64,000 nucleotides of DNA, from IMG/VR virus record IMGVR_UViG_2630968963_000002, positions 4,204 through 68,203 of that record; one strand, 5' to 3'. The translations under genes were made by a program, and so were the position numbers. The notes beneath the pieces were generated by a model. It was not told where the DNA came from, searched no databases, and worked only from the letters and a program-made list of their open reading frames with translations. Positions within the stretch are counted from its first letter, which is position 1. Each line of letters opens with the position of its first letter. The DNA is from a virus (Duplodnaviria; Caudoviricetes). This document shows positions 3,001-64,000 of the stretch, piece by piece.

Positions 3001-4334
3001 GATAAATTCCCATTTACAAGTGTTTGAATTTTACCAACTTCAGCTTCTACTGTGCCTATTTTAGCGGATACAGCTTCTAGTTGAGTTATACTTGCTTTAT
3101 TTGCTTCAAGTTCATTTATTTGTGCAGTGTGGGTTACTGTAAGTTTATCTATAACTCCTACATTAGCTTTTAATGTTCCAAACTCACCTTCTATAGCTGT
3201 TAACTTTCCAGTTATAGTTACATTTTCTGCAATTAAATTTTCAATTGTGGCGTTAACTGCTTTAAGATCTTCTATATCCGCCTTATTAATTAATGCTTCA
3301 TTTACAATTAACAATTCAGTTACAACTCTATTAACTTTATTACTTAGATTACCAGTTGAATTAAATTCATTTTTATTTTTACTTTCACCCTTTGCACCTA
3401 TTTCAGATGTAAGTCCCCCATTATAGTTGAACTTTTGAGATAGTATAGGAATATTTCTTTTTACACCTTTATGATCTGTAAGAGATATAATATCTCCAAC
3501 ATCTAGAGATAAATCCCCCTGCCACTTCATCGAATATCCTACATACTCAATACTTTTTAACTTATTATATATATCTGTAAGAATAGAATCATTAACCCAA
3601 GGATTTTCAAAAGTAACTTCCATAGAAGAATTACTTAAAGTACCTTTAGTTAACTCTTTTTCATTTACCTTGCAAGTAACTGCACCTATCCTATAAACAT
3701 TTTCTTCAGTTTTTAAGTCTATATAATTTTCATCTGTTATTGAGTAATCTATAGTTTTAAGTGTATTTATAGTAAATTTTCCATCTCTAGTTATGTATGC
3801 ATTACCAGCACATAAACTAGATATAAAACCAAGTGCTTCTCTACAAGTAAAGCCTTCCAACTTATTTAAATTATAAGAAGGAAGGCTTCCTGTAAATTCT
3901 ACTCCAGTAATTTGAGATAATTCATTAACTATATTTTTTAATGATGCAGTTTTGCCTAATTTACTAAAATAAGGTTTTTCAAACTTCATCATATTATCAA
4001 AACATGTAAGTTTTATAGAGTAATCAGTTTTTTCAATATCATCTATATTAAAATAACCCATTAATACATATTCAATTTTTGAACCTACATTTAAACCTAT
4101 TTCAACTTTAACTATAGAGTTACTGTAAATAGTATTATTTGTAGATAATGTTAGTTCTAATGACTTTGAAACTGCTGACCCTATACTAAAACCATCTGAA
4201 GGTTGAACATCTTCTATAGTTATATTGATTATATCAGCATTGGTATATATATTATCTCTTATGGTTACTTTACATTCAAAAGATCTAGAAGGCTTTTTTA
4301 TTTCTAATAAATATGATGAACTTACATTTTGCAT
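1..4334 (-). CDS. Large tail tip/tail fibre (receptor-binding) protein, 3' end outside window
   Basis: Absent from ORF track because no stop lies in the window. ATG at 4334 with AAGGTGA SD, MQNVSSSYLLEIKKPSRSFEC; N-terminus resembles 36646..38082; last visible residues TSRKYQVFLSVYGEGIANVIERYPTHFIIKGTPNL, typical of Firmicute phage fibre C-termini. Only the ends were translated by hand. Confidence 0.85.
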   Translation of the reverse strand, partial: MQNVSSSYLLEIKKPSRSFECKVTIRDNIYTNADIINITIEDVQPSDGFSIGSAVSKSLELTLSTNNTIYSNSIVKVEIGLNVGSKIEYVLMGYFNIDDIEKTDYSIKLTCFDNMMKFEKPYFSKLGKTASLKNIVNELSQITGVEFTGSLPSYNLNKLEGFTCREALGFISSLCAGNAYITRDGKFTINTLKTIDYSITDENYIDLKTEENVYRIGAVTCKVNEKELTKGTLSNSSMEVTFENPWVNDSILTDIYNKLKSIEYVGYSMKWQGDLSLDVGDIISLTDHKGVKRNIPILSQKFNYNGGLTSEIGAKGESKNKNEFNSTGNLSNKVNRVVTELLIVNEALINKADIEDLKAVNATIENLIAENVTITGKLTAIEGEFGTLKANVGVIDKLTVTHTAQINELEANKASITQLEAVSAKIGTVEAEVGKIQTLVNGNLSSENIQAGGITSDKLTIANGFITNAMIANLDVSKINAGDISTNKFRIKSDDGGIEIVGATQQFKDKNNKVRVQIGRDKNNNFTFSLFDETGTGVLIDHTGIKEGAIADDLIISDMIASDAVGEKQINYSSFITGFNKDTNTNTIKSTKIMLNNQNQTLDVAFNQLKTQADDTKSLTESHSTTIGVMQGQITTAINNTQIVKDGQTILLKDDYNRTVQTVNSMNSTIVSHTTKINEHTGKITGVETRVNTVERDLDGITARVSSTEKNVTTVTNTANAANSNATNALNIANSANSKIDGLEIGGRNIVKDTGTSKSIIGTGTTNRTGCTYHFTVPYLTDIKGKELIVVFDWKYEGENPSGTFYMQTGEPQYGLVTGTQTISPTNTKGTVKNIWKPAMERDTKSVYIRTDNMVGTFTISNLRVYFGTKDIGWTPAPEDVQTQIDTNKTEISSTKSKVSSIETNLSSITSRVSEVEKTQTTVDGKVTSLQTRMQSAEQKLTKEGLTTIISNHYTTSNDVNGIVTSKGYQTHSQVQQTVDKLQAKFTANGGYNKLYNSAFLTGDIRNWSNLGTCTRTVTSSTTSGFAKCLKIVADGASQGVYQIVDNLVVGKQYTLSALVKATSGKTGIQVYHDDKYLHSYTSPEEKYQVLSITFKATTTTASIRLGTLGSGTSGTYYYTGVLLTEGELVEPWSPHPSEVYDGITTIDKDGITVTSSNVKSKTTISANGFKIIKTDTNEEVFKVNSSGRLELYGIFRTRNGDRKSGYFGENQVTFYNWWSDTNESIAYFYGGKTSANKRSADVVGKDVFSLGVGEPGSGTKVLEGSSSTLNIYKNTNFNNYKLKEVNSINEDTIQSTFVERIVIRSSQVNSNHDSGNLNLNYWKGYNVTSSVEVKVCNGNNDGTRGKLTCQDFKAYGTKNACVQTSVGYVDINAYETADYYFGDIGETILDNDGYSYVYIDSIFTETANTSRKYQVFLSVYGEGIANVIERYPTHFIIKGTPNL

Positions 4335-20446: not shown

Positions 20447-21049
20447 TTATTCATTATTTAATAATTTTATATATTTATATATTGTTGTTCTACTCATATT
20501 GCATAGTCTTGAAAACTCTGATATGTTTATATTCTTGTTTATATAACTTGGATAATGCTTTAAAAATATACCTGGTATGTTTTCACTTGTTACTTTAGGT
20601 CTACCTACAATTTTTCCTTTAGCCTTTGCATGTGCCATTCCTGATTTAACTCTTTGACTTATCATGTTTCTTTCCATTTCTGAAAAAACACCCATCATCT
20701 TTAACATACCTTCTGTCATTGGATCTAATTGTCCTTTAGTACAATCAACAATAAATGCACCTATAACAAGTTTTAGATGCTTTTGCTGCACTAATTCTAT
20801 TATTTCACAAAGTTGTTTTGTACTTCTAGTTATACGAGATACCTCTGTTGTAACTATTGTGTCACCTTGTTTAATAGTATTAAGCAGTTTATTTAATTCT
20901 ACTCTATCTGTTTTAGTACCACTTTCATATTCCAAGTATATATTTTCTTTACTTGCTCCAAGTTCTTTAAGTTCTCTTATTTGTCTTGTAATATCTTGTT
21001 TAGTTTCATCTGTAGAACATCTAGCATAACCATAAACAATATTGTTCAT
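20447..21049 (-). CDS. Small serine recombinase (resolvase/invertase)
   Basis: YGYARCST catalytic Ser, SRITRS, GRPK, C-terminal HTH SRTTIYKY; start MNNIV by AGGGG SD. Confidence 0.92.
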   Translation of the reverse strand: MNNIVYGYARCSTDETKQDITRQIRELKELGASKENIYLEYESGTKTDRVELNKLLNTIKQGDTIVTTEVSRITRSTKQLCEIIELVQQKHLKLVIGAFIVDCTKGQLDPMTEGMLKMMGVFSEMERNMISQRVKSGMAHAKAKGKIVGRPKVTSENIPGIFLKHYPSYINKNINISEFSRLCNMSRTTIYKYIKLLNNE

Positions 21050-21063
21050 TTTATTATTACCCC

Positions 21064-21240
21064 TTTTCGTATACATTTTATAGTTAGACTATAATATAAA
21101 ATATTAAAGTTGTCAACGAAAAGGTATATTTAATTTCGTGAACACTTTTAAAGTATTTTTTATTGAAATACCTATATCCAATATATGAATTTATGCTTTT
21201 TCAAACTGTTCACGAAAACAATTGTTTTTTTGAACACTTA
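21064..21240. promoter_or_regulatory. Probable res-like multi-subsite region upstream of resolvase
   Basis: Repeated and inverted half-sites TTCGTATACA, TCAACGAA..TTCGTGAACA, TGTTCACGAA..TTTTTGAACA. Confidence 0.6.
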
Positions 21241-21576: not shown

Positions 21577-22248
21577 TTAGAAGTCTAGAAGATCATCAAA
21601 TAACGAAGCATCTTCTCTCATCTCTTCATCATACAATCCTATGTATTCTTTTGTTGTTTCTACACTCTTATGACCTAATCTTTGCCTTACTCTTTCTATG
21701 TTTCCAGTTCTATCATAAATTCTTCTAGCATAAGTTTTTCTTAAACTATGTCCTGTTATTGCATTTAAACCTAATGTTTTGGCAACTTCTCTAAGAATTC
21801 TGCTAAATGACTGACTGCTTATATGTTTACCTTTTTTAGATTCAAATGCATATTGAGATTTACGCTTACCTTTAACATATTCTGTTAAGGCTGTACTTAA
21901 TGATGAACTTATTATAGCTTTCCTTTTTTTAGGAGGTTTTCTTTTAGAGTTCGGATTCTTTTTTATATATGTAAGCCAACTTTTATATTGTTTTTTCTCT
22001 TGTATTTCGAAATATCCAAGTTCCAAAGCTTCTTTTATTTCTCCTATAGTTAGATCTACTACATCTTGCATTCTATAACCAGTGCCTATACCAATCATAT
22101 ATAGCATCATATTTCGCTTTTCAAAATCTTTACTCTTCTCTTCCAATCGATATGCAAATCGTTTGATATAATTTTCAGGAATAGGCTTGGCTGGAACTTT
22201 TTTATCTTGTTTATCTATAATTTCATCTAAATACAATTCTTCATTCAT
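21577..22248 (-). CDS. Tyrosine recombinase, catalytic domain only
   Basis: TGYR, HSLRKT, LGHKS..T..Y catalytic residues. Confidence 0.9.
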   Translation of the reverse strand: MNEELYLDEIIDKQDKKVPAKPIPENYIKRFAYRLEEKSKDFEKRNMMLYMIGIGTGYRMQDVVDLTIGEIKEALELGYFEIQEKKQYKSWLTYIKKNPNSKRKPPKKRKAIISSSLSTALTEYVKGKRKSQYAFESKKGKHISSQSFSRILREVAKTLGLNAITGHSLRKTYARRIYDRTGNIERVRQRLGHKSVETTKEYIGLYDEEMREDASLFDDLLDF

Positions 22249-28917: not shown

Positions 28918-29319
28918 ATGTTTGGAGATAGATTAAAATTATTAAGAAAAAATGGTAACTATACACAAAAAGAACTTGGAGAAAAATTAAATGTATCTGG
29001 TAGGGTTATTGGATACTATGAGTCAAATGAGAGATTTCCAGATAAAGAAACTCTTACAAGACTAGCTGATTTTTTTGAGGTATCTGTCGATTATCTTCTT
29101 GGTAGAACTGATATAAGAAACAATATTAAAGATAATAAAATTGATATAAATAAAAATGAAAAAGATAATGACATAGAAAAGATTATAGATGAACTAATGG
29201 AACAAAAAGGTCTTATGTTATGTGGTGAGCCTATGAGTGAAGAAGATATGTTTTTACTTAGAAACTCTATAAGAAGTACAATTGAACTGGCTAAGACAAT
29301 GAAGAGTAATAAGAAGTAA
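28918..29319 (+). CDS. CI/ImmR-like repressor
   Basis: N-terminal XRE HTH; VSVDYLLGRT. Confidence 0.92.
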   Translation: MFGDRLKLLRKNGNYTQKELGEKLNVSGRVIGYYESNERFPDKETLTRLADFFEVSVDYLLGRTDIRNNIKDNKIDINKNEKDNDIEKIIDELMEQKGLMLCGEPMSEEDMFLLRNSIRSTIELAKTMKSNKK

Positions 29320-29323
29320 ATAG

Positions 29324-29779
29324 GTGATTATTGTGGGAAGAATTAAGGGAATAGTTATTAACTTAATAAAAAAATATAACACATCAAATGTATATGAACT
29401 CTGCGACCATTTAAATATAACTATAAAAAGAGATAAATTAGGAAGTATAAAAGGGTACTTTTTAAATGTTTATAATGATATGTTTATTATTTTAAATGAA
29501 AATATTAAAGAATGGGAAGAGCCTATAGTCATTGCACATGAACTTGGGCATATTCTACTACATAAGCATTCTAATATCTGTTTCTTAAAAAATTATACAT
29601 TTTGTATTACAGATAAATATGAGAATGAAGCAAATGAATTTGCTGCTCATCTATTAATAGACGATAAAGATCTAGATACTTTTTCTTCTGGCTATGAATA
29701 CGTAACTATAGAACAATTAAGCAAACACTTTTGTGTTCCTCAAGAATTTATTATGTATAAGATGAGAGAGTTGTTTTAG
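29324..29779 (+). CDS. ImmA/IrrE-family metallopeptidase
   Basis: AHELGH...ENEANEFAA. Confidence 0.92.
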   Translation: MIIVGRIKGIVINLIKKYNTSNVYELCDHLNITIKRDKLGSIKGYFLNVYNDMFIILNENIKEWEEPIVIAHELGHILLHKHSNICFLKNYTFCITDKYENEANEFAAHLLIDDKDLDTFSSGYEYVTIEQLSKHFCVPQEFIMYKMRELF

Positions 29780-30148: not shown

Positions 30149-31429
30149 ATGCTTTTAAAAATAAAAAACTTTGCTAAAATACAGAATGCAGAAGTGAAAA
30201 TAGATGGCATAACTGTTATTGCAGGTGAAAATAATACAGGTAAAAGCACAATAGGAAAAATATTGTATTCTATGTATGCTAGTTATTACAATATTGAAGA
30301 AAAAATTTATTCAGAAAAAAAAGATCTTATAATATCTAAGCTATTCAAATATGTTGTTAATTTGGATGAAGATCTTAATAGTTTAAATAATAATATAACT
30401 TTATGTAGATCTATTGCTGAAAAAATAATAAATAATTATGAAAATATATCTAATATTAATAAATTTGTTTCTGATCTTATGTCTAAAGATTTTAAAATAA
30501 ATTTAGATGACTCAGATTTTGATAAAATAATCCTTGATATACAAGAAGTGTTAGATATAAAAAATGATATCGTTGAGTTTACTATAGTTGAAGATATTTT
30601 TAATTCTGAATTTAATTCTCAGATTAATCATACAAACTTTAAGGATAAAAAAGCTACTGTAGAATTAAATATAAAAGATAAATCTTTATATTTTGTATTT
30701 AAAAATAATGAAATTGAAAACATTAAAAGAACAATAAACTTATTTGTGAACCCTATTTATATTGATAATCCTTTTATGTTAGATGAATTATCTAATAAAA
30801 AAATAAATCCTTTTAAAGCCGTTCATCATAAAGAAGATTTTTCTAATAAATTAGAAAACCGTAATTCAAATAATAATTTGATAAACCAAACATTAACTAA
30901 ATCAAGGCTTTCTAAAATTATTAGTAAGTTAAATAGCGTTACAAATGGATCTTTTTCTGATATAGATGGTGAATTAAAATTTAATATTACAGGATTAAAT
31001 GAACCTTTAAGTCTTACAAATTTATCAAATGGTTTAAAAACTTTTGTTATAATAAAAAGATTACTGGAAAATGGTTATTTGGAAGAAAATGGACTTTTAA
31101 TACTTGATGAGCCTGAAATACACTTACATCCAGATTGGCAACTTATTTTAGCTGAAATAATTGTTTTATTAAATGAAGAATTTAGCATCAATATTATTGT
31201 AAATACACATAGTCCGTATTTTTTAAATGCAATTGAAGTATTTTCAACTAAGTATAAAGTATCAAATAAGTGTAATTACTATTTAGCAGAATTAGACAAA
31301 GATGATAATACTGTTTCTCATATAGCTGATGTTACAAATGAAACTAGTTATATTTATGATAAACTAGCTTCTCCATTACAAAAATTAGAGAAATTATTTT
31401 ATGAAATTGGTGAAAATAATGAGTTCTAA
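30149..31429 (+). CDS. ABC/AAA_15-21-like ATPase, putative defence component
   Basis: Walker A GENNTGKS, signature LSNG, Walker B LILDEPEIHLHP, H-loop NTHSPY. Confidence 0.9.
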   Translation: MLLKIKNFAKIQNAEVKIDGITVIAGENNTGKSTIGKILYSMYASYYNIEEKIYSEKKDLIISKLFKYVVNLDEDLNSLNNNITLCRSIAEKIINNYENISNINKFVSDLMSKDFKINLDDSDFDKIILDIQEVLDIKNDIVEFTIVEDIFNSEFNSQINHTNFKDKKATVELNIKDKSLYFVFKNNEIENIKRTINLFVNPIYIDNPFMLDELSNKKINPFKAVHHKEDFSNKLENRNSNNNLINQTLTKSRLSKIISKLNSVTNGSFSDIDGELKFNITGLNEPLSLTNLSNGLKTFVIIKRLLENGYLEENGLLILDEPEIHLHPDWQLILAEIIVLLNEEFSINIIVNTHSPYFLNAIEVFSTKYKVSNKCNYYLAELDKDDNTVSHIADVTNETSYIYDKLASPLQKLEKLFYEIGENNEF

Positions 31430-32048
31430 TTATTTAATAAGTTCTGGATGTCAATTTAGAGAAACTTTATCTGAAACTTCTAAAGATACTGCTAATAATG
31501 AATATATGACTAACTCTAATATGAATGTTATCAACTTTGATAGCTACAAAGAATTTTATATAAACAAATTAAATTTACCTATAATTTATGATTCTAGAAA
31601 TACCCCTCAAAAAAGAGGTATTAAATCTAATGATGCATTATTTATTAATAATGATGAAATTTATTTTATAGAATTTAAAAATGGTTCAATCAATGATTCT
31701 AATAATGGCCCATTTAGTTTACATACTAAGTTATATGATAGTTTACTTATTCTATTAGATACGATAGATGAAAATATTTCATTTTCAAGAAAAAATATTA
31801 AATATATATTAGTATTCAATGAAACTAAAAAACATAAAGCAAAATCTTTTCGTAGTAACTCTTTGAACGCAATTTCTAGTAGATTAGCTGATTTATCCAA
31901 TAAAGAGATTATTCATTTTGATTTACATAAATTTAAAGATATATATTTAAATGAAGTACATACATATACAAAATCTCAATTTGAAAGGAATTTTGTAAGA
32001 AGATTCCAAAATATAGATATGTTTAATCAGTTAGCTGTAGAAGTATAA
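31419..32048 (+). CDS. Putative PD-(D/E)xK nuclease coupled to the ATPase
   Basis: KSNDAL...YFIEFKNG; start MSSNY overlaps the ATPase stop. Confidence 0.7.
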   Translation: MSSNYLISSGCQFRETLSETSKDTANNEYMTNSNMNVINFDSYKEFYINKLNLPIIYDSRNTPQKRGIKSNDALFINNDEIYFIEFKNGSINDSNNGPFSLHTKLYDSLLILLDTIDENISFSRKNIKYILVFNETKKHKAKSFRSNSLNAISSRLADLSNKEIIHFDLHKFKDIYLNEVHTYTKSQFERNFVRRFQNIDMFNQLAVEV

Positions 32049-32148: not shown

Positions 32149-32220
32149 TTTTATAAAGTATAACTTTTATTTTAACTATATTTTATAAATGATATAATTA
32201 TCTTGAAAGGTGGTTTTATA

Positions 32221-33807
32221 ATGATTGCTGCAATATACTCAAGAAAAAGTAAATTCACTGGAAAAGGTGAGTCAATAGAAAATCAAATTCAACTTTGTAT
32301 GGACTATGCTAAAAATATAGGCATTACTGAATTTTTAGTATATGAAGATGAAGGTTTTAGTGGAGGATCTACAGATAGACCTAAGTTTCAAGATATGTTA
32401 GCTGATGCTAAAGATAAGAAGTTCGATTGTTTAATCTGTTATAGATTAGATAGAATTTCAAGAAATGTATCTGACTTCTCTGCTCTTATAGAAGAGTTAA
32501 ATAAATTAGGTGTATCTTTTATATCAATAAAAGAACAGTTTGACACGTCTACTCCAATGGGACGTGCTATGATGTATATTTCTTCTGTCTTTGCACAATT
32601 AGAAAGAGAAACTATAGCTGAACGTGTCAAAGATAATATGTATGAATTAGCACGTACAGGAAGATGGCTTGGAGGAAATACTCCTACTGGATTTACATCA
32701 GAAAAAATAACTTATTTTGATGAAAGTATGAACCAAAGGTCAATGTGGAAGTTAAAGGTTGATAAAGAAGAAATGAAGTTAGTAGAACTTATATACTCTA
32801 AATATGAGGAATTAAAGTCACTATCTCAAGTTGAAAAATACTTCTTATCTTCTAATCATAAAGGTAAAAATAATGGTAATTTAGATAAATCAACACTTCA
32901 ATCTATACTTAGAAATCCTTGCTATGCTAAGTCTAGTGAAGAGGTTATAAAATACTTATCAAATAATGGTATGGATGTAGTTGGTAGTCCTGATAACTCT
33001 CATGGATTTTTAACTTATGCAAAACAATCAAATACTCCTATAGTTTCAGTTGCAAAACATAAAGGAATTATAGATTCTGATAGATGGTTTTACATTCAAA
33101 AAATATTAGACTCAAACAAATCTAAAGCTCCAAGAGTAGTTTCTGGAAGTAATGTTGCTCTTTTAACTGGACTATTAAAATGTAGATGTGGAAGTACAAT
33201 GAGAGTAAATTATGGATCTAAAAGAAAAGATGGTACAAGAGGTCATTATTATATATGCGCTAAGAAAAACACAAAAGGTTTAGTAGCATGTGATAATAAA
33301 AATATAAATGGTGAACAATTAGAAGAAGTAGTAATTGAACAAATAAAGAATGTAAATGAAAATAATATTTTTAATAAATTTGAAGAATCTAAAAAAGCAA
33401 CATTAGAAAAAAATAAAAATATTAAATCTGAGAAAAAAATAATTAATAAGAAAATAGAAGATGCTAATTCAGCTATAGAAAATTTAGTTAAACAGCTGTC
33501 ACTAAATACAGATAGTGTTGCATCTAAATATATAATCTCTGAAATTGAAAAATTAAATCAAGAACTTGAAAGTTTAAATAATAAACTTATTAAATTAGAT
33601 AATTTAAGCAAGGAAATTGATTCTATTGATATAAACTTAAATATAATATCAGATGCTTTTATTAAATTTAGAAATGAATTTGATAACGCTGATTTAAATA
33701 CTAAAAGATTTTTACTATCTAGTATAATCGATGAAATTATTTGGGATGGTGATACTGGTAATATAAATGTGTGTTATTTAGGTACTAAAAAAAAAGCACT
33801 AATATAG
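32221..33807 (+). CDS. Large serine integrase of prophage 1
   Basis: AIYSRKS catalytic Ser, LDRISRN, recombinase domain, zinc ribbon LLKCRCG..YYIC..C, coiled coil; start MIAAI by AAAGGTGG SD. Confidence 0.96.
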   Translation: MIAAIYSRKSKFTGKGESIENQIQLCMDYAKNIGITEFLVYEDEGFSGGSTDRPKFQDMLADAKDKKFDCLICYRLDRISRNVSDFSALIEELNKLGVSFISIKEQFDTSTPMGRAMMYISSVFAQLERETIAERVKDNMYELARTGRWLGGNTPTGFTSEKITYFDESMNQRSMWKLKVDKEEMKLVELIYSKYEELKSLSQVEKYFLSSNHKGKNNGNLDKSTLQSILRNPCYAKSSEEVIKYLSNNGMDVVGSPDNSHGFLTYAKQSNTPIVSVAKHKGIIDSDRWFYIQKILDSNKSKAPRVVSGSNVALLTGLLKCRCGSTMRVNYGSKRKDGTRGHYYICAKKNTKGLVACDNKNINGEQLEEVVIEQIKNVNENNIFNKFEESKKATLEKNKNIKSEKKIINKKIEDANSAIENLVKQLSLNTDSVASKYIISEIEKLNQELESLNNKLIKLDNLSKEIDSIDINLNIISDAFIKFRNEFDNADLNTKRFLLSSIIDEIIWDGDTGNINVCYLGTKKKALI

Positions 33808-33862
33808 AAAATATAGCTACTGCAACTGATTCAGAGTTTTTAAAAACATTGTATTTTAGTTG

Positions 33863-34088
33863 TTGTAGCTTCCGTATGCCCAACATAAAATCCTGATTTT
33901 TCTCCTCCAACAAATAAGTTTTTCATATTTTCCGCTCTCATATAATTATCCCTTGGAGATACTGCCATATATCTGATTGAGTTTCCCTTTCCTCCACTAT
34001 ATGGATCTACTATACAAGCAGTTTCAAAACCAGATACACTTCTTAATTTTTCCAGATTGAAGAAAGGTGACATTAATTTTGCATGTGC
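33863..34088 (-). pseudogene. Internal fragment of a host GidA/TrmFO-like FAD-dependent oxidoreductase gene between two att junctions
   Basis: In-frame HAKLMSPFF...DPYSGGKGNSIRY...NLFVGGEKSGFYVGHTEA resembles the GidA-family LFxAG(Q/E)xxGxxG(Y/H)xEA flavin motif; similarity stops abruptly at both ends. Boundaries uncertain by about 5 bp. Confidence 0.8.
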
Positions 34089-34403
34089 TGTGTTAATAGT
34101 ATTGCGACACTTAAACCAATACGTTTTAAATTGTATGGAGATAAAACTTATCGTTTATATAATTATAGCAAAGATGATACTCTTTCAGAAATGATAAAAA
34201 AATATAGATTAAATAATAATTTATCTTATAAAGAACTTGGTGAACTTGTAAACTGTTCCCAAGGCCATTTATGGATGATTGAACATAAAGATAGAGACTA
34301 TCCTCAATCAAAGGTATTAATCAAAAAAATATTAAAATTAGTAAGAAAAGATTTTATACTATGCATAGTAGTAGGAAATATAATTAAGTTTATTTTTACA
34401 TAA
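34083..34403 (+). CDS. XRE-HTH reading frame open from the att junction; true start unclear
   Basis: IKKYRLNNNLSYKELGELVNCSQGHLWMIE HTH; first ATG lies in the host fragment and ATG 34191 lacks an SD. Confidence 0.6.
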   Translation: MCCVNSIATLKPIRFKLYGDKTYRLYNYSKDDTLSEMIKKYRLNNNLSYKELGELVNCSQGHLWMIEHKDRDYPQSKVLIKKILKLVRKDFILCIVVGNIIKFIFT

Positions 34404-34875
34404 ATTTATATTAAATATAAATGAAAAAAATATAAAAATTGGATCTTTATAGATGAAATGAGGCCTAGGTTGGTACTCTCTGTATAATTGATTACCAGTT
34501 TTATCGTGACTGACAATTATACATATAATAATGAATTATAATATCACATATTTAAAATCAATATTTTAGACTAAAACACTCAAAAAAACTAATATTCCGC
34601 ATAAATAACTGGAAAATTTATGAAAAATATGATATAATTTTAAAAAAATACTCATATAGTAGTATTTTTCAAACTTCCATAAATCAAGAACCTATAAACT
34701 TGACATCTACTTATTAAGTTTAAAAATAGTTCTTGTTTAACCCCAATAAAGTGGTTAATATCCCTGTAAACCAAAATCCCTAATTTAAGTTTCAAAACCA
34801 CACTATACTTAATTAAATAACTTATTTTTTATATTTTCTTTTTAAAGAAATGTTATATTTAGAAGAAGAGAAAAA

Positions 34876-35037
34876 ATGAAAAATTTAATTAAAGAGGTTT
34901 TCAGGGAAAATTATATAAAATTAGAAATTAGAGATACAATTGTTGTTATCAAGTTTACTTTAGATTCTACACAGTTTATGTTTTTTCTTTTCTTCTTAAT
35001 TTTTCTTAATTTTAATAGACATGTATTTACTAGATAG
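34876..35037 (+). CDS. Candidate small membrane protein (53 aa; not in ORF track)
   Basis: MKNLIKEVFRENYIKLEIRDTIVVIKFTLDSTQFMFFLFFLIFLNFNRHVFTR; weak purine-rich SD. Confidence 0.4.
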   Translation: MKNLIKEVFRENYIKLEIRDTIVVIKFTLDSTQFMFFLFFLIFLNFNRHVFTR

Positions 35038-35157
35038 TATTATATATATATTGGCTACTCAGTCTAAATATCAAATTACAAAAACTGTATTTTTTATTTA
35101 GGCCCTTATTTCAAAAATATGTATTTCCCAGGGTATTTGTTACCCAAATAATTAATT

Positions 35158-35197
35158 AAAAAGTGCTAGGATAAAACTCATCCCCCTAGCACTTTTT
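35158..35197. terminator. Bidirectional terminator after endolysin
   Basis: AAAAGTGCTAGG..CCTAGCACTTTTT. Confidence 0.75.
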
Positions 35198-35232
35198 CTT
35201 ATACTTTTAATCACATGAATTTAAATTATTTA

Positions 35233-36123
35233 TTATTTTTCTACAAATACATATTTTTTATTTAAAGATAACCATCCTTTACGATATGGAGCATACCCCC
35301 ATTTTCCATTTTTAGATACTTTAGTAATTTTATACCTCACACCCTTTGGAGCTGTATGTAATATATCAACTTCAGTTGTTGGTGACTTTCTTATATTAAG
35401 CTTTCCTTTTGTAATTACATAATAAGGAACTTTATTTGTTATATACTCATTAGTTATTGGTTTATTAAATCCATTTAATCCTTTTGATTTTATAAGAGAT
35501 GTATAATCTACATAACAATAGTTTTGGTCAGTACTTGAAGAAGGTATTCCATTTATTTTTTTATTTCTAAGCAGATTTGTCTCTCCTCCAAACTGCCACA
35601 TCATTAGATCCTTTTCTTTGTAACCACATTCTTTTGCATAATGAGCTATCCATTTATCATACTTAGAAAGTTCACTTTCAATAAGATGATCTCTTAATAT
35701 ATATTTACCTGAATATATAGCTACATAATAGCCAGCATCTTCTACAACCTTAGCCATAGCTTTTACTGCATCTGTTAGCTGTCTTTTTGATGTTTTCTTT
35801 AATACTTCTGTATCTTCTATATCCAAGAATATTGGATATTCAAACTTTTTTCCTTTAAGTAAATCTACTATAAATTTACCCTCTGCTTTACCTTCTGCAA
35901 CAGTAGCACATCTACTATAGTAATAAGCTCCTATAGGCATTCCTATAGCTTTTGCCTGTTTATAATATTCTTCAAACTTAACATCCTTTGCCATTGTTTT
36001 ACTAGAAGATAAACTAGTTCTTCCAGCTCTTAATATTGCAAATTTTACACCTTCAGATTTTACTTTACTCCAGTTAATAGTTCCATTGTGATAGCTAACA
36101 TCAATTCCAAATATTTTTTCCAT
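35233..36123 (-). CDS. Endolysin, GH25 muramidase plus SH3b
   Basis: GIDVSYHNG, GAYYY, PIFLDIED, MWQF; C-terminal LNIRKSP..GWL. Confidence 0.95.
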   Translation of the reverse strand: MEKIFGIDVSYHNGTINWSKVKSEGVKFAILRAGRTSLSSSKTMAKDVKFEEYYKQAKAIGMPIGAYYYSRCATVAEGKAEGKFIVDLLKGKKFEYPIFLDIEDTEVLKKTSKRQLTDAVKAMAKVVEDAGYYVAIYSGKYILRDHLIESELSKYDKWIAHYAKECGYKEKDLMMWQFGGETNLLRNKKINGIPSSSTDQNYCYVDYTSLIKSKGLNGFNKPITNEYITNKVPYYVITKGKLNIRKSPTTEVDILHTAPKGVRYKITKVSKNGKWGYAPYRKGWLSLNKKYVFVEK

Positions 36124-36191
36124 TTTATTTACCTTCCTTTTCTATATTTTATAAAATAAAAGTGACTCTGCATGATCTACACAAAGTCACT

Positions 36192-36548
36192 TTATTTTTC
36201 TACTTTTTCTAATTTATCAACTTTATTTGCTCCAACTTCTAAAGCTTTCTTTATGCTATTTGGGACCCATACATCTAGCCTTACTAAATTTTCTATGATA
36301 CTAAGTCCTTCTTTAAAAATAAATCCTATAATAAACGTTCCTATGTATGCACTAATTTGAGGTATAAAATAATCCAATGCTATAAATATACCGAGTACTA
36401 TACACTCTCCAAAGCTCCTGAACATTCCTTCACTACATCTCCTTGACTTTAATCCACCTTCTTTAGCCGCTGCTAATATTCCAGCAATAAAGTCTATTGA
36501 TATTCCTACAAAAAATACTTTAAATAATACTTCTAATGTTATTCCCAT
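36192..36548 (-). CDS. Holin
   Basis: Hydrophobic helices, DFIAGILAA, EGLSIIENL; upstream of lysin. Confidence 0.9.
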   Translation of the reverse strand: MGITLEVLFKVFFVGISIDFIAGILAAAKEGGLKSRRCSEGMFRSFGECIVLGIFIALDYFIPQISAYIGTFIIGFIFKEGLSIIENLVRLDVWVPNSIKKALEVGANKVDKLEKVEK

Positions 36549-58988: not shown

Positions 58989-59513
58989 CTACTTTTTAGT
59001 TTTTGGAATAATAAGACTTGTCCCAGCTTCAATATGGCAACCTTCTATCTCTATTCCTGCTTTTATTTGTTTTTTAATAAGATTGCTATCTACTTTTACA
59101 GTTGTTGTAACTACTTCTTCTTTGTATATATTTGGTATAAGGTCTATATCATCTATTTTTAAGCTTCCTGAATTATTTCTTATTGATATTTTTCCCAAAT
59201 CAGTTTCAATCTTTGTTGTACCTAATAACTCCATGCTATCTTTAAGCATTGATTTAATATTTTCTTCTTTCTTCTTAACTTGTTTCTTTAGGTCCTGTAA
59301 TCTCTTAATTTCCCCATCTATAGCATTAATTTGACTATCTATATTTCTGAATACATGTATAAATCCAACTGACTTATTTTGTATTTCATTTCTAATTATT
59401 TGATTAGCTTTTACTAAGTTCTCTGCTAGATCTTCTTCTCCAGCTTGTAAATATTCTTCTATTAAATTATCTACTTCTAAAAAGTTAGAAGTTAATTGAT
59501 ATAATGAGCTCAT
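58989..59513 (-). CDS. Siphovirus Gp157-family protein
   Basis: LYQLT..EIKRL..K...IKAG.EIEG. Confidence 0.85.
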   Translation of the reverse strand: MSSLYQLTSNFLEVDNLIEEYLQAGEEDLAENLVKANQIIRNEIQNKSVGFIHVFRNIDSQINAIDGEIKRLQDLKKQVKKKEENIKSMLKDSMELLGTTKIETDLGKISIRNNSGSLKIDDIDLIPNIYKEEVVTTTVKVDSNLIKKQIKAGIEIEGCHIEAGTSLIIPKTKK

Positions 59514-59598
59514 TTATATTCCTCCTAAAATGTGATATAATTTACTTGATACAATTTACTTAATATTTTTTAATTGGACCTCTGCAAAGGTCATTTTT

Positions 59599-59838
59599 TT
59601 ATATAACTCCAAGATAAGGTATGTTATCATTCATAGCCTCATACAATATGTCATATTCCTTTGTATCGTCTTTTAACATTAGTTCAATTTCTTGTAGTTG
59701 ATATTTCAACCAATTTATCTCATCTTTATTTGCAGATTTATAAACTTTATGAACTTCTGCATCATCTATATTATTTTCTAATGCTTTTATTCTTGCTTTC
59801 ATACTGCCTATAACATCTTCTAATATCCAGTTACTCAT
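59599..59838 (-). CDS. Hypothetical early protein
   Basis: Coupled to upstream ORF; start MSNW. Confidence 0.65.
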   Translation of the reverse strand: MSNWILEDVIGSMKARIKALENNIDDAEVHKVYKSANKDEINWLKYQLQEIELMLKDDTKEYDILYEAMNDNIPYLGVI

Positions 59839-60154
59839 TTTTCTCACCCTTGTTCGTATAATATTTTTTCATTCTTCTTTTTCTTGCACATGGTTTACAT
59901 TCATATCCAAAACCATTTTTATAATTTTTATTTACATAAAAGTTCTCTGAATTAGCTTCTAGTATCTTTTTGCAGGTACTACATTTTTGATAACCATATT
60001 CTTGTAATGTACCTCTTACAAATCCTTTTCTGTGTGCAAAGTTATAAAGTTGCTGAACATCCATATTAAATTTATCTGCTATATCTTTTACATCGTTAAA
60101 AGGATTTTCATACATTTCTTTTAATTCCCATAACTTTTCTTTAGTTAATTTCAT
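59831..60154 (-). CDS. Hypothetical protein with HTH-like N-terminus and Zn finger
   Basis: CSTC...CKPC. Confidence 0.7.
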   Translation of the reverse strand: MKLTKEKLWELKEMYENPFNDVKDIADKFNMDVQQLYNFAHRKGFVRGTLQEYGYQKCSTCKKILEANSENFYVNKNYKNGFGYECKPCARKRRMKKYYTNKGEKNE

Positions 60155-60290
60155 ATCTCCACCTATCTAGTAAAACCTTTTAACTTTCCATCATGTATAA
60201 TGAAATACAGACCTAAACTCTTAAAATACTCACACTGCTCAAGTGTTATACTTTTTATATCGACTATTTTTAAATCCATATCTTCTCCCC

Positions 60291-60491
60291 CTAATTTAAG
60301 CTCTTCTCAAGTTCTTTCTTTTTATTAAGTTCTATTGTCTTCTCAAGTCCTCTTTTTAACGCTTCAACATATTCAACTGGCTTACAAGCTATAATTCCTT
60401 TTGCCAATCCTTCACACATAATATCTTGAAACTTATCCATATTTTCCGGTGTAGGATAATTACAAATTACAGTGATTTCCTTTTTAGCCAT
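60291..60491 (-). CDS. Hypothetical early protein
   Basis: Start MAKKEI by GAGGTG SD. Confidence 0.65.
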   Translation of the reverse strand: MAKKEITVICNYPTPENMDKFQDIMCEGLAKGIIACKPVEYVEALKRGLEKTIELNKKKELEKSLN

Positions 60492-60546
60492 CACCTCACC
60501 CCCATATAAATACTTATGTTTATAAAAATTTGTCCTATTCAAATTC

Positions 60547-60741
60547 TTATTTAACTAATTCATCTATTGTAATTCCAAGATAATCAGCTATAGCTTTTAC
60601 TGTATAAACTCCTGGATTTAAATTCTTACCTTGTGTGATTTTATATATGTTACTTACTGGTATATTCGCTTCTTTTGCTAACTTATGTATGCTCATATTT
60701 CTTTCTTCCAACAATTGATTTATTTTGTCATCTATTGCCAT
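60547..60741 (-). CDS. XRE-family HTH regulator
   Basis: Positional and sequence counterpart of 26796..27005. Confidence 0.85.
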   Translation of the reverse strand: MAIDDKINQLLEERNMSIHKLAKEANIPVSNIYKITQGKNLNPGVYTVKAIADYLGITIDELVK

Positions 60742-60809
60742 CTCATTACTCCTTTTGATATAATTTTTTATGGAATATTTTCCAAATATTTATGAAGGAC
60801 GGTGTTTTT

Positions 60810-61058
60810 ATGTGGTCATCTTATGGAGTAAAATTCAAATGTCCAACTTGTAATGAAACTTTTACTGTTAGAACAAAATATCTATTAGATAAAGATTCTG
60901 TCACTTGTTCTTGTTGCGACTATAAATTTCCTGATGAGGTTATATCTAACATAAAAAAATCTATTCAATATGCTTCTAAAGCATTTGTTTTTGTTAGAGA
61001 TAATGATTTATCAAATAAGTTAGAATTTGATTTTTTAACTATTCCAAAGGAAGATTAA
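60810..61058 (+). CDS. Counter-oriented small zinc-ribbon protein
   Basis: CPTC...CSCC; upstream TGATATAAT. Confidence 0.7.
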   Translation: MWSSYGVKFKCPTCNETFTVRTKYLLDKDSVTCSCCDYKFPDEVISNIKKSIQYASKAFVFVRDNDLSNKLEFDFLTIPKED

Positions 61059-61380
61059 AGTCATCAACCTTAGGTATTGAATTAGATGTATGCTTCTCTT
61101 GAACTTGCCTTTCTTGAGCAGTTTTATTTCTGTCTAATTTCTTATAAGCATATAGTGCGTGTTCTTTTATCATTCTTGATAATTCAAACTTCTGCATCCT
61201 GAATCTATACAAATCGTCATCACAATCTTTTATACAAATACTTTTAATTTCTCTCTTGTCTGAATCTTTTTCAAAGTTGCGTTCAATAATTAAATTTTTT
61301 CTTGTTTCCTTTGTTGTTAAAATATTTTCATCTATACTTTCTATTAATTCTTTAATTGATAAGTTGCATAATTCGTTCAT
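61039..61380 (-). CDS. Hypothetical early protein
   Basis: GAGG SD, 113 aa. Confidence 0.65.
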   Translation of the reverse strand: MNELCNLSIKELIESIDENILTTKETRKNLIIERNFEKDSDKREIKSICIKDCDDDLYRFRMQKFELSRMIKEHALYAYKKLDRNKTAQERQVQEKHTSNSIPKVDDFNLPLE

Positions 61381-61391
61381 ACCTCTACCTC

Positions 61392-61889
61392 CTACTTTTC
61401 AATTCTTTGGTCTTCTTTAAATTTAGGTAGCTTATCTTGTAATTCTTGTTTTGTTACAGGTACGCCTACTAATTCAACAACAGCTCTATCTCTTGGATTA
61501 CCAAATAATGATGACCCTATATCATTCAAACGTTTTTCAAGCTTTAAAAAAGCCATTCTTTTACTAGTTGCTTTTTGATATAACTTAAAATCTACTCTCT
61601 CTGTTGAAACAATATATAAACAATCTCCAACTTGACTATCTAATTTTGCATTGATTAAATTGTTAACAGTTACATCTAATGCTTTTGCTAATTTTTCAAC
61701 TTCATCAAGTCTTATACGGTGCTTAACATTCTCGATATTACTTAATCTACTTAGTTTTATTCCTGATTTTTTAGCTAGTTGTTCTTGTGTTAATCCTAAA
61801 GCTTTTCTTTTATCAACAATGTTTATTGCTACATCGCAATAAAAGTCATATCCTATTCTTTCTAAAATACTATCTCCATAAAATCTCAT
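61392..61889 (-). CDS. XRE HTH protein with C-terminal extension
   Basis: LTQEQLAKKSGI..LSNIEN..KLAKAL. Confidence 0.85.
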   Translation of the reverse strand: MRFYGDSILERIGYDFYCDVAINIVDKRKALGLTQEQLAKKSGIKLSRLSNIENVKHRIRLDEVEKLAKALDVTVNNLINAKLDSQVGDCLYIVSTERVDFKLYQKATSKRMAFLKLEKRLNDIGSSLFGNPRDRAVVELVGVPVTKQELQDKLPKFKEDQRIEK

Positions 61890-61902
61890 ATTAAATTACC
61901 TC

Positions 61903-62691
61903 CTAATTAAAAGTTATTTGTCTAACGTTATCTGCAACTAAATGTAATTGCATATTTTTAAGTTTTATGTCCTGTTCAAGTGCATAAGGTAATCTATAAT
62001 TACTAACTATCTCCATTGCACTATCAAACTGACATCTTTTTATTGCTTCATATCTATTTACATCAAATTCTCTTTTAATTTGATTTTGAATATCTGAATA
62101 AACCTTACCTCTCAAAGAATTATCATTATATGCTGGAGTTTTATATCCGCCTAATGCTTTCGTTCCTATTTTTCTAACAAGTGCTTGTAATTCTTTACAT
62201 TCCACTTGGAAAAGAGGTATATCTCCTTTAAAATCTTCAAACTCATTTTTTACTTCTTCTATCTTATGTTCCTGTTCTTTTATTGCTTTGAATTGTAATT
62301 CTAATAGCTCCATAGGACTTAATGGTTTTACTGGTTGTTGTAATTTATTTTCCAGTATATTTATGTATTGAATTGTTTTAGCTCTTACCACTGCACTTTC
62401 TTTATTTAATATTTGCAGTGCTGCATCTCTGTTTAGAGAATAGCAAGGCTGTTCTTTATTTTGAGAATTTATATAAGATGACTGTACAAAATTGTACTGT
62501 CCTTCGAATCCTGCATTTTTTAAATCTTCAATTTCTTTTCTTATGTCTCTCATCAAAGTATTGTGTTGCTTTATATTGTCATTACCTTCTTCAATTCTGA
62601 ATTTATTGATCATATCTACTAAATCCACACTACTAATTCTTACTTCATTTTTTTGAATTACTTCATAACTTGCTAGTAAACTGCCTTTCAT
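61903..62691 (-). CDS. Antirepressor-like (Rha-like N-terminus plus ORF6C)
   Basis: H..LMRDIR..SSYINSQNKEQPCY; KVYSDI...KREFDV.RY.AI. Confidence 0.85.
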   Translation of the reverse strand: MKGSLLASYEVIQKNEVRISSVDLVDMINKFRIEEGNDNIKQHNTLMRDIRKEIEDLKNAGFEGQYNFVQSSYINSQNKEQPCYSLNRDAALQILNKESAVVRAKTIQYINILENKLQQPVKPLSPMELLELQFKAIKEQEHKIEEVKNEFEDFKGDIPLFQVECKELQALVRKIGTKALGGYKTPAYNDNSLRGKVYSDIQNQIKREFDVNRYEAIKRCQFDSAMEIVSNYRLPYALEQDIKLKNMQLHLVADNVRQITFN

Positions 62692-62703
62692 CTTTATTCC
62701 CCC

Positions 62704-62919
62704 TTAATTTATAACCATTTTGGTTGGTTTGTTGTTAAAAAAAATTTCTTCTGGATTTTTCTTTAAAACATAAGCTATTTTAATTGCTTCTCTTATAGTA
62801 AATTCAGTTTGCCCTTGTTCTTTCTTTTGATAAGTAGAATAAGGCATTTCAATTAATCGAGCTAATTGTCGTTGTGTTAATCCATTTTCTGCTCTGGCTG
62901 CTTTAAGCTTTCTGTTCAT
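62704..62919 (-). CDS. Cro-like HTH repressor
   Basis: LTQRQLARLIEM..STYQKKEQG; start MNRK by GAGGTGA SD. Confidence 0.88.
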   Translation of the reverse strand: MNRKLKAARAENGLTQRQLARLIEMPYSTYQKKEQGQTEFTIREAIKIAYVLKKNPEEIFFNNKPTKMVIN

Positions 62920-62940
62920 ATATTCACCTCTAATCTCTAT

Positions 62941-63091
62941 AACCATTTTGGTAAGTCATTTATATTTCAATAATACTACCACTTTGGTTGTAAGTCAACC
63001 GTTTTTTATTATTTATTTTTAATTTTTGGTTGATTATATATATTTTTTGGTTGATTTTCACTATAATTTAAATTAAATAACCATTTAGGTA
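62941..63091. promoter_or_regulatory. Lysis/lysogeny operators ACCA-N3-(T/A)GGT
   Basis: AACCATTTTGGT 62941 (also 62713), TACCACTTTGGT 62977, AACCATTTAGGT 63079. Confidence 0.75.
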
Positions 63092-63121
63092 AGATTTTTA
63101 AATTTAATATGGAGGTTATAC

Positions 63122-63472
63122 ATGGATATGTTAAGTAATAGATTAAAACAATTGAGAATAGAAAAAGGTAAAACACAAAAAGAAATGGCAAAAGATTTAG
63201 GTACTACAGATGTATCTATTGGAAGATACGAAAAAGGAGAAAGAGAACCAAAAACAGATATGTTAAATGCTTTGGCAAACTACTTTGATGTTACAACAGA
63301 CTACCTTCTTGGTCGTACAGACGAAAAAAATCCTAAAAAAGAAATCAATAATGCTACAACTATAGCCGCTCATAGACTTGGGGATATTGAACAACTTCCA
63401 GATGATGCAATTGATGAAATAAACAATTATATAGATTTAATGAGATTAAAATATTTAAAAGATAAAAAGTAA
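63122..63472 (+). CDS. CI/ImmR-like repressor
   Basis: XRE HTH, VTTDYLLGRT, TIAAH. Confidence 0.92.
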   Translation: MDMLSNRLKQLRIEKGKTQKEMAKDLGTTDVSIGRYEKGEREPKTDMLNALANYFDVTTDYLLGRTDEKNPKKEINNATTIAAHRLGDIEQLPDDAIDEINNYIDLMRLKYLKDKK

Positions 63473-63490
63473 TGGGAGTGTTGGGGGAGT

Positions 63491-64000
63491 ATGGATAAAT
63501 TAGAACATCTTTTACAAATAGCAGCCGATGAAAATATCTTGTTACATTACGATGATTATATCCCCTATAACTTAGAAGGGTTGTATGTGAACATAAAAGA
63601 TGTTGGTCCTGCTATTTTTCTTTTAAAAAAATTGAAGCAAAATAAATCTAAACATATTGAAATATTAGGGGAAGAGCTAGGTCACCATTTCACAAGTGTA
63701 GGCGATAGTATTTGTAATGCTTCTACATATAGAGATAAATTAAATATACTTAAATGTGAAAAGCAAGCTACTGATTGGAGTACTAATCATATAATCACAA
63801 ATAAAGAACTAACTAAAGCTCTAGAGCATGGATGCAATTCATTTTATGAAATATCAGAATTTCTAAATGTTAATGAACATATAGTAAGAGATAAATTTGA
63901 GTACTTAGCTAGAAAAAGTAGTACAGGCTATATTCAGTTAGGTAGTTATAAAGTTATACTTACTAATCTGCCTAATATTTATTTGTATAAGGATTTATAG
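63491..64000 (+). CDS. ImmA/IrrE-family metallopeptidase
   Basis: LGEELGHHFTSVG...EKQA; adjacent to CI. Confidence 0.88.
   Translation: MDKLEHLLQIAADENILLHYDDYIPYNLEGLYVNIKDVGPAIFLLKKLKQNKSKHIEILGEELGHHFTSVGDSICNASTYRDKLNILKCEKQATDWSTNHIITNKELTKALEHGCNSFYEISEFLNVNEHIVRDKFEYLARKSSTGYIQLGSYKVILTNLPNIYLYKDL

Follow-up and report, generated by a model that had tools for sequence, protein, structure and literature searches.

A host flavoprotein gene interrupted at two separate sites by two prophages within a single virus record

INTRODUCTION

Serine integrases catalyze integration by recombining attP with attB, and excision requires a directionality factor in addition to the integrase. Several prophages that use these enzymes reside within open reading frames (ORFs), such as Listeria A118 in comK, SPbeta in spsM, and phi3T in kamA.

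Target genes of this kind can be shared, as a survey of serine integrases describes many distantly related enzymes that target the same gene cluster (Durrant et al., 2022; PMC10083194). In spore-forming bacteria, some of the elements that split genes are described as being excised in the mother cell, including skin from sigK, SPbeta from spsM, gin from gerE, and yin from yabG (PMC4191935, PMC5499854, PMC5025042, PMC5595907, PMC10747680). Genes can also be interrupted more than once, as reported for the nitrogen-fixation genes of heterocyst-forming cyanobacteria, which are cut by several elements (PMC4874684, PMC11249958).

Here, we analyze a 64,000-nt stretch of DNA, hereafter the window, that comprises bases 4204–68203 of a 68,203-bp virus record. 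A sequence-only reading of the window had proposed that two prophages interrupt a single host gene at two positions, leaving it in three pieces. The coordinates of the gene pieces and their homology to an intact host protein bear this out. We describe the locus, the states in which the gene occurs in related genomes, and the explanations that can be envisioned for the double insertion.

RESULTS

A piece of a host gene separates the two prophages

The two prophages are separated by a minus-strand frame that, within window positions 33800–34130, is open from 33843 to 34130 (Table 1). By our own estimate, a 75-codon open frame would arise by chance in DNA of ~28% G+C with a probability of roughly 0.001–0.002, and homology to an intact oxidoreductase rules out a chance frame altogether. 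When the fragment was used in a protein search, 280 of 301 candidates had E values of 0.001 or below. Its relatives are intact FAD-dependent oxidoreductases of 426–427 amino acids from Terrisporobacter, Romboutsia, and related genera, and the best match is a 426-amino-acid enzyme (P0001; 96% identity, E 1e-41). Over residues 262–335, the middle piece of the gene is 100% identical to P0001 in amino-acid sequence and 100% identical in DNA to the corresponding T. muris locus (L081). The expectation that a stop-free internal piece of a flavoprotein lies between the prophages was thus correct.

With both attachment-site cores included, the middle piece is 218 nt long. The interval first proposed for it, 33863–34088, was roughly right, with the true junctions differing by 3–5 nt. 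The two sites do lie close together, at a spacing of about 211 bp rather than ~225 bp. The breaks had been placed near the motifs GHTEA and HAKLM, and this is where we find them: site 1 falls at the GHTEA codons (residue 335) and site 2 at the GHAKLM codons (residue 262).

Table 1. Coordinates of features at the locus (window positions unless marked as bases of the record)
Feature	Position	Strand	Basis or remark
Host gene, 3′ piece (residues 334–426 and stop codon)	record bases 1–285	minus	outside window
Prophage 1, part in window	1–33867	minus	PHROGs matches, junction cores
Prophage 1, two further recombinase genes	20447–21076 and 21577–22248	minus	between terminase and regulatory genes
Prophage 1, repressor (HTH_3) and ImmA/IrrE-type metalloprotease	28918–29779	plus	Pfam, PHROGs
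Prophage 1, ABC-type ATPase (426 aa) and overlapping partner (215 aa)	30149–32048	plus	between ImmA-like gene and integrase
Prophage 1, integrase (large serine recombinase, 534 aa)	32203–33807	plus	Pfam, PHROG 95
Listed ORF	33840–34073	minus	77 aa, runs from junction to junction
Host gene, middle piece	33868–34085	minus	residues 262–335 of 426-aa FAD-dependent oxidoreductase, both cores counted
Site-1 core, 5 bp	33868–33872; other copy at record bases 281–285		common to both prophage 1 ends
Site-2 core, 7 bp	34079–34085		common to junction, intact Terrisporobacter alleles, and T. muris 5′-side junction
Prophage 2, first gene (small HTH protein, 106 aa)	34083–34403	plus	start codon inside site-2 core
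Prophage 2, at least 29.9 kb in record	34086–64000	minus	PHROGs; record end cuts element
Prophage 2, repressor (HTH_3) and ImmA-like metalloprotease	63122–64000	plus	stop of second gene is last triplet of record

The identification of the protein as GidA/TrmFO-like did not hold up. The fragment matches the Pfam GIDA family (E 5e-06; 26.2 bits against a cut-off of 22.1; profile positions 315–373 of 391), but the equivalog models for both enzymes score far under their cut-offs, with 30.6 bits against 524.85 for GidA (MnmG; TIGR00136) and 27.9 bits against 428.65 for TrmFO (TIGR00137). No NCBIfam model reaches its cut-off on the host protein, the GIDA-type FAD fold of Pfam being the only match. 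The best relatives of the host protein among solved structures are MnmG proteins, with E values of ~1e-05 over residues 271–353 only.

Organization of the prophages

Prophage 1 spans record bases 286–38070 (~37.8 kb) and begins 3.9 kb to the left of the window. It is siphovirus-like, with genes for tail fibre, tape measure, major tail, head, portal, terminase, replication, and anti-repressor proteins from left to right, followed on the plus strand by a repressor, an ImmA-like protease, the ATPase pair, and the integrase, which ends 61 nt from the site-1 core. The integrase matches Resolvase in its N-terminal catalytic domain (PF00239, E 6e-40, residues 9–155), Recombinase (PF07508, 1.1e-11) and Zn_ribbon_recom (PF13408, 1.6e-15) in its C-terminal half, and PHROG 95 integrase (2e-118). 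The CcrB and XisF models also match, far below their cut-offs.

Two further recombinase genes of prophage 1 encode a small serine invertase (209 aa, PHROG 125) and a tyrosine-integrase-like protein (223 aa, PHROG 216). For the ATPase, the best matches in a library of defence systems were PD-T4-4_A, HEC-02, and NsnB (~1e-21), and family searches gave no match for its 215-amino-acid partner. The pair is likely to be anti-phage defence cargo.

Prophage 2 begins on the left with its helix-turn-helix (HTH) gene, followed by genes for endolysin, holin, tail, tape measure, head, portal, and terminase proteins, then RecT/Gam, replication, and anti-repressor genes, and finally the plus-strand repressor and ImmA-like protease. 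The record stops inside this lysogeny module, at window position 64000, and contains neither an integrase of prophage 2 nor the 5′ piece of the host gene. In T. muris, a relative of prophage 2 extends ~4 kb further, through two lipoprotein-like genes to a 528-amino-acid serine integrase that adjoins the 5′ piece. From T. muris, we infer that the strain from which the record derives also carries the 5′ piece and a prophage 2 integrase.

Both prophages carry full structural, lysis, replication, and lysogeny gene sets as judged by PHROGs. They share only three stretches, namely 964 nt of endolysin at 95.5% identity (window 35234–36194 and record bases 2235–3197) and two short ones; the shared endolysin module is a possible place for inter-prophage recombination. 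At the end opposite the integrase, prophage 1 carries a 145-amino-acid HTH gene (record bases 307–741) in a position equivalent to that of the 106-amino-acid HTH gene of prophage 2, whose protein has weak matches, below cut-off, to Pfam HTH_19 and HTH_3. In a phage collection, we found no close relative of either prophage, the best matches covering 14% and 15% of the queries.

The attachment sites differ, and excision at site 1 restores the frame in silico

Both sites look like serine-integrase sites, as judged from their short cores and inverted-repeat arms. The phage arms of prophage 1 are complementary at 22 of 30 positions, and those of prophage 2 contain a perfect 13-bp inverted repeat. 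At the left junction of prophage 2, the window and T. muris share the same phage arm. The cores of sites 1 and 2 differ, and their phage arms are unrelated to each other. The prophage 1 integrase and the T. muris 528-amino-acid integrase belong to one large-serine-recombinase family and are 47% identical overall, 78% identical in the catalytic domain, and 35% identical in the remainder. Since the divergence is concentrated in this DNA-binding remainder, different specificities are expected. The description of the inserts as serine-recombinase elements stands for prophage 1, which carries such a gene at the junction, and probably extends to prophage 2, whose close relative in T. muris carries one next to the 5′ piece.

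The sequence-only reading had suggested looking for the 3′ part of the gene to the left of prophage 1 and joining it in silico. This piece is present within the 68-kb record, 3.9 kb left of the window start and directly beyond prophage 1. The middle piece (residues 262–335) and the 3′ piece (residues 334–426) are contiguous, overlapping by the 5-bp core alone with nothing else duplicated or lost. When they were joined at this core by script, the frame was kept, giving 165 codons and a stop codon. The product differs from P0001 at two residues, and the joined DNA is identical over 498 of 498 nt to the uninterrupted sequence of T. muris DSM 29186. In silico, precise excision at site 1 thus gives an intact reading frame. 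Precise excision at site 2 would also give an intact frame, judging from T. muris and the intact alleles. Because sites 1 and 2 differ, the gene is restorable only if both elements leave, as had been proposed.

Related genomes carry the gene with neither or one of the two sites occupied

A scan of species genomes with six peptide patterns returned 164 matching stretches, 84 of which encode relatives of the gene, at 79 loci. In T. mayombei, T. petrolearius, and T. vanillatitrophus, both sites are empty and the gene is intact. Only site 2 is occupied in T. muris DSM 29186, whose 5′ piece covers residues 1–266 at 99% identity. On the contig with this piece, the integrase lies on the opposite strand and is followed by DNA that resembles window 59491–64000; over this 4.5-kb overlap, the T. 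muris prophage is only 82–91% identical to prophage 2. A second T. muris contig contains the left end of prophage 2 (99% identity over 522 nt) and runs into an unbroken middle and 3′ part. Only site 1 is occupied at two other loci (L067 and L019), where residues 1–337 are unbroken and the integrases are 91% and 87% identical to that of the window. In the L067 genome, the 3′ piece is 37.5 kb away.

A further counterpart of the window is a metagenome contig (L111) that matches the 3′ piece (285 nt) and window 33868–36105 (2238 nt) at 100% identity but lacks prophage 1, the two flanks overlapping by exactly the 5-nt site-1 core. On the strength of this identity, L111 is the same host with the same prophage 2 and without prophage 1. 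A search of metagenome contigs for an exact 40-nt pattern across the site-1 junction gave no matches.

In scans of viral contigs, the last prophage 2 ORF matched six loci at 33%–37% identity, where tblastn found no piece of the host gene. The prophage 1 integrase matched one locus (L007) at 59% identity, and tblastn with the host protein found no gene piece nearby. The T. muris integrase matched nine loci, none above 49% identity.

The gene is split repeatedly across the family

The gene is present in 63 of 112 Peptostreptococcaceae genomes and was not found in the other 49. Fourteen of the 63 carriers have a split gene: eight at site 1, three at site 2, and three at a third site near residue 87. 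None of these 63 species representatives is split at two sites. The integrase adjoins the 5′ piece in every split locus examined. Site 1 is used by three integrase subgroups, found in Terrisporobacter, Tepidibacter, and Romboutsia. At the third site, whose core letters are those of site 2, one of the three genomes was checked, and there an integrase lineage ~50% identical to both others adjoins the 5′ piece. Judged from these sequences, the gene has been entered repeatedly by elements of this integrase family, at no fewer than three distinct sites and in several genera. Three Romboutsia loci seemed to have a third break, at residue 362, but this proved to be site 1, as the 3′ pieces start at residues 329–330 and the alignment had crossed a stop codon.

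Several additional arrangements were observed. The third site is occupied at L099 (4546–6448) and at L062 (near 10001) of Tepidibacter formicigenes, with its own 545-amino-acid serine integrase and an element of ~51 kb. In a protein encoded on an 1823-bp metagenome contig (P0077), an in-frame fusion links the N-terminal ~190 residues of a serine recombinase to the flavoprotein sequence that starts at about residue 232. Either a fourth insertion site, with a phage attachment site inside the integrase gene, or a chimeric assembly could account for it. One Paraclostridium genome (G047; L100/L101) has an intact gene and, 32 kb downstream, an extra copy of residues 259–426 that begins exactly at site 2. 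This copy has type I restriction-modification-like ORFs next to it, the 16.5 kb examined contains no serine integrase, and a replacement for the 3′ part of the gene may be carried by the element. In Tepidibacter mesophilus (L073, 11337–11486), an integrase remnant (residues 18–66, 58% identical to the window's integrase) lies ~60 nt downstream of an intact gene. Three loci from uncultured Clostridia (L084, L085, and L086) have ~300 nt extra between residues 120 and 135, which looks like an inserted domain. One gene copy (G107, residues 105–425) contains one TGA and one TAG and is the sole clearly decayed copy among the 63 carriers.

Junctions in public assemblies

The exact 77-amino-acid ORF that runs between the junctions occurs in 31 recorded contigs, of which the longest measures 469,809 bp; for ORFs of the site-2-only type, the corresponding counts are 93 and 149. 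Five sequencing runs from three studies contain every sampled word of window 33700–34300, and some of these runs may be the source of the record. Both junctions lie on one 3593-bp contig from run X3. Run X6, which belongs to a different study, has contigs across each of the junctions, at depths of 25 and 29. In runs X1 and X2, which look like one data set present twice, depth is 14.5 on the prophage 1 side and 36–44 over the middle piece and prophage 2. Contigs from these runs with site 1 empty end at 33868. Their flank has 4 mismatches to that of the window in 30 positions, which places at least part of them in other strains, and we do not count them as evidence of excision. Forms with an empty site 1 are seen in assembled contigs of public runs, where they are indistinguishable from co-existing strains.

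Gene context and selection

The gene is second in a two-gene redox operon, with a 16-nt gap after a gene for a PRK05802-type FAD/NAD-binding protein (315 bits against a cut-off of 313). Rubrerythrin is encoded upstream of the pair, and a flavodoxin-like gene and the his operon lie downstream. As it was not found in 49 of the 112 family genomes, the gene is accessory on this evidence. We found no link to sporulation in its annotation or among its neighbors, using family libraries that carry no sporulation-regulon information. That the target is an unannotated flavoprotein gene among redox genes hints that it is not a sporulation gene. At site 1, the phage end adds eight residues and a stop codon after GHTEA. 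The truncation falls inside a conserved C-terminal stretch, read as part of the predicted FAD-binding fold, and would be expected to inactivate the gene.

The pieces in split genomes are free of internal stops. The dN/dS of the detached 3′ pieces, estimated from two Tepidibacter species, is 0.146, compared with 0.096–0.191 in intact genes, but since the insertions may be very recent, so low a value cannot separate selection from youth; it is also what function maintained through regular excision would give. For the window itself, the DNA of the middle and 3′ pieces is 100% identical to prophage-1-free alleles, indicating that insertion of prophage 1 was recent. The intact middle piece had been taken to fit either ongoing selection or recent insertion. 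Recent insertion, with 0 differences in 498 nt, explains it and makes ongoing selection unneeded; at such an age, intactness says nothing about selection.

DISCUSSION

We consider it quite probable that the locus reflects ordinary double lysogeny, in which two phages, each with its own serine integrase and its own site, share one accessory landing gene. The host would be a gut Terrisporobacter lysogenic for two unrelated temperate siphophages, and its gene pieces match those of T. muris DSM 29186 exactly at the DNA level. For each phage, a separate large serine recombinase would have directed integration into a short attachment site particular to that phage, the two sites lying by coincidence in the same gene, which encodes the 426-amino-acid FAD-dependent oxidoreductase. 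Prophage 2 was probably resident first, with prophage 1 a recent arrival. The short tails and stop codons contributed by the phage ends would inactivate the gene, and precise excision of both phages, each using its own integrase and a putative directionality factor, would restore it. Since several phages share this landing gene, double occupancy follows naturally.

Could the double insertion be an artefact of assembly, in which a short stretch of host sequence common to two phage contigs led to their false joining? At each of its ends, the record coincides with a stop codon (record bases 1–3 and window 63998–64000), which suggests automatic trimming, and the record is probably a provirus call trimmed at gene boundaries; moreover, two phages and part of a host gene are combined in this one entry, from which the integrase end of prophage 2 is missing. 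However, an independent contig spans both junctions, contigs from another study bridge each of them, and the exact junction-to-junction ORF recurs in the 31 contigs, making a false join very improbable. There is equally little chance that the middle fragment is carried by a phage, either as a duplicate acquired through imprecise excision or as a partial gene copy. The Paraclostridium genome, with its intact gene and additional partial copy starting at site 2, offers a similar-looking case, but the fragment in the window has exactly the same DNA sequence as the host gene in T. muris, a genome in which it is contiguous with its flanks and which has no further copy of the gene (two matches only). 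In addition, the fragment runs straight into the 3′ piece in L111 and into the 5′ part in L067 and L019, and at our locus the pieces overlap by the 5-bp core only. The idea of a phage-carried duplicate is contradicted by these continuities.

A further possibility is that the locus is a two-input developmental switch, in which programmed excision of both prophages, for example in the mother cell at sporulation, rebuilds the flavoprotein gene. The host genus forms spores, precise rejoining works in silico at site 1, the pieces are intact in all split genomes seen, and the dN/dS of detached pieces is as low as that of intact genes. Both prophages also carry an HTH gene at the end away from the integrase, a placement that we take to resemble that of sprB in SPbeta. 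Nonetheless, the flavoprotein gene lacks a sporulation annotation or context and was not found in the genomes of many family members, and the inserts look like complete, independent temperate phages. The insertion is too recent for intactness to inform on selection, and most carriers are singly split, with none of the 63 representatives doubly so. We regard a developmental switch as decidedly unlikely, and the regulatory AND-gate reading, including its analogy to skin and SPbeta, is without support. It is also unlikely that the gene serves as a three-site docking platform for one integrase family across Peptostreptococcaceae and acts as a true two-input switch in double lysogens. If a switch did operate, the redox operon would stay off as long as either phage remained integrated, with the excision of each phage controlled separately, and the host gene would report simultaneously on the state of both prophages.

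Under ordinary double lysogeny, the locus does not yet show new biology, but it is useful in several respects. Three mutually different natural attachment sites and their integrases occur within one 1.3-kb gene, making it a compact case for integrase retargeting and a predicted source of orthogonal integrase/site pairs. For virus catalogues, it illustrates how one virus record, cut back to gene boundaries, can consist of two phages together with part of a host gene. As for the AND-gate idea, the existence of a culturable relative, T. muris DSM 29186, and of exact junctions makes double excision testable.

How does the locus compare with described systems? In the open-access literature, we found no matching case among Firmicute phages of two prophages in one gene with joint excision. 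As the heterocyst nitrogen-fixation genes are described in the reports cited above, they resemble our locus in that more than one element lies in one gene or cluster and several excisions are needed to restore it. Those excisions are developmentally programmed, as demonstrated by experiment, and the elements are mostly not phages and reside in cyanobacteria, whereas the arrangement described here involves phages in Firmicutes. With skin, SPbeta, gin, and yin, going by the accounts cited, the locus shares a serine-recombinase element that splits a gene in a spore-forming Firmicute and can be precisely rejoined; unlike in those systems, the target has no sign of a sporulation role and both inserts look like complete phages.

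Close parallels also come from prophages such as A118, SPbeta, and phi3T. As in these, an integrase with Resolvase, Recombinase, and zinc-ribbon domains lies at the prophage end, the core is short and flanked by inverted-repeat phage arms, and insertion occurs inside conserved coding sequence. The use of one target gene by several integrase lineages is also in keeping with ORF-targeting serine-integrase prophages. What sets this locus apart is that the target is an uncharacterised flavoprotein gene, that a third site is used in other genera, and that two sites of one gene are occupied at once.
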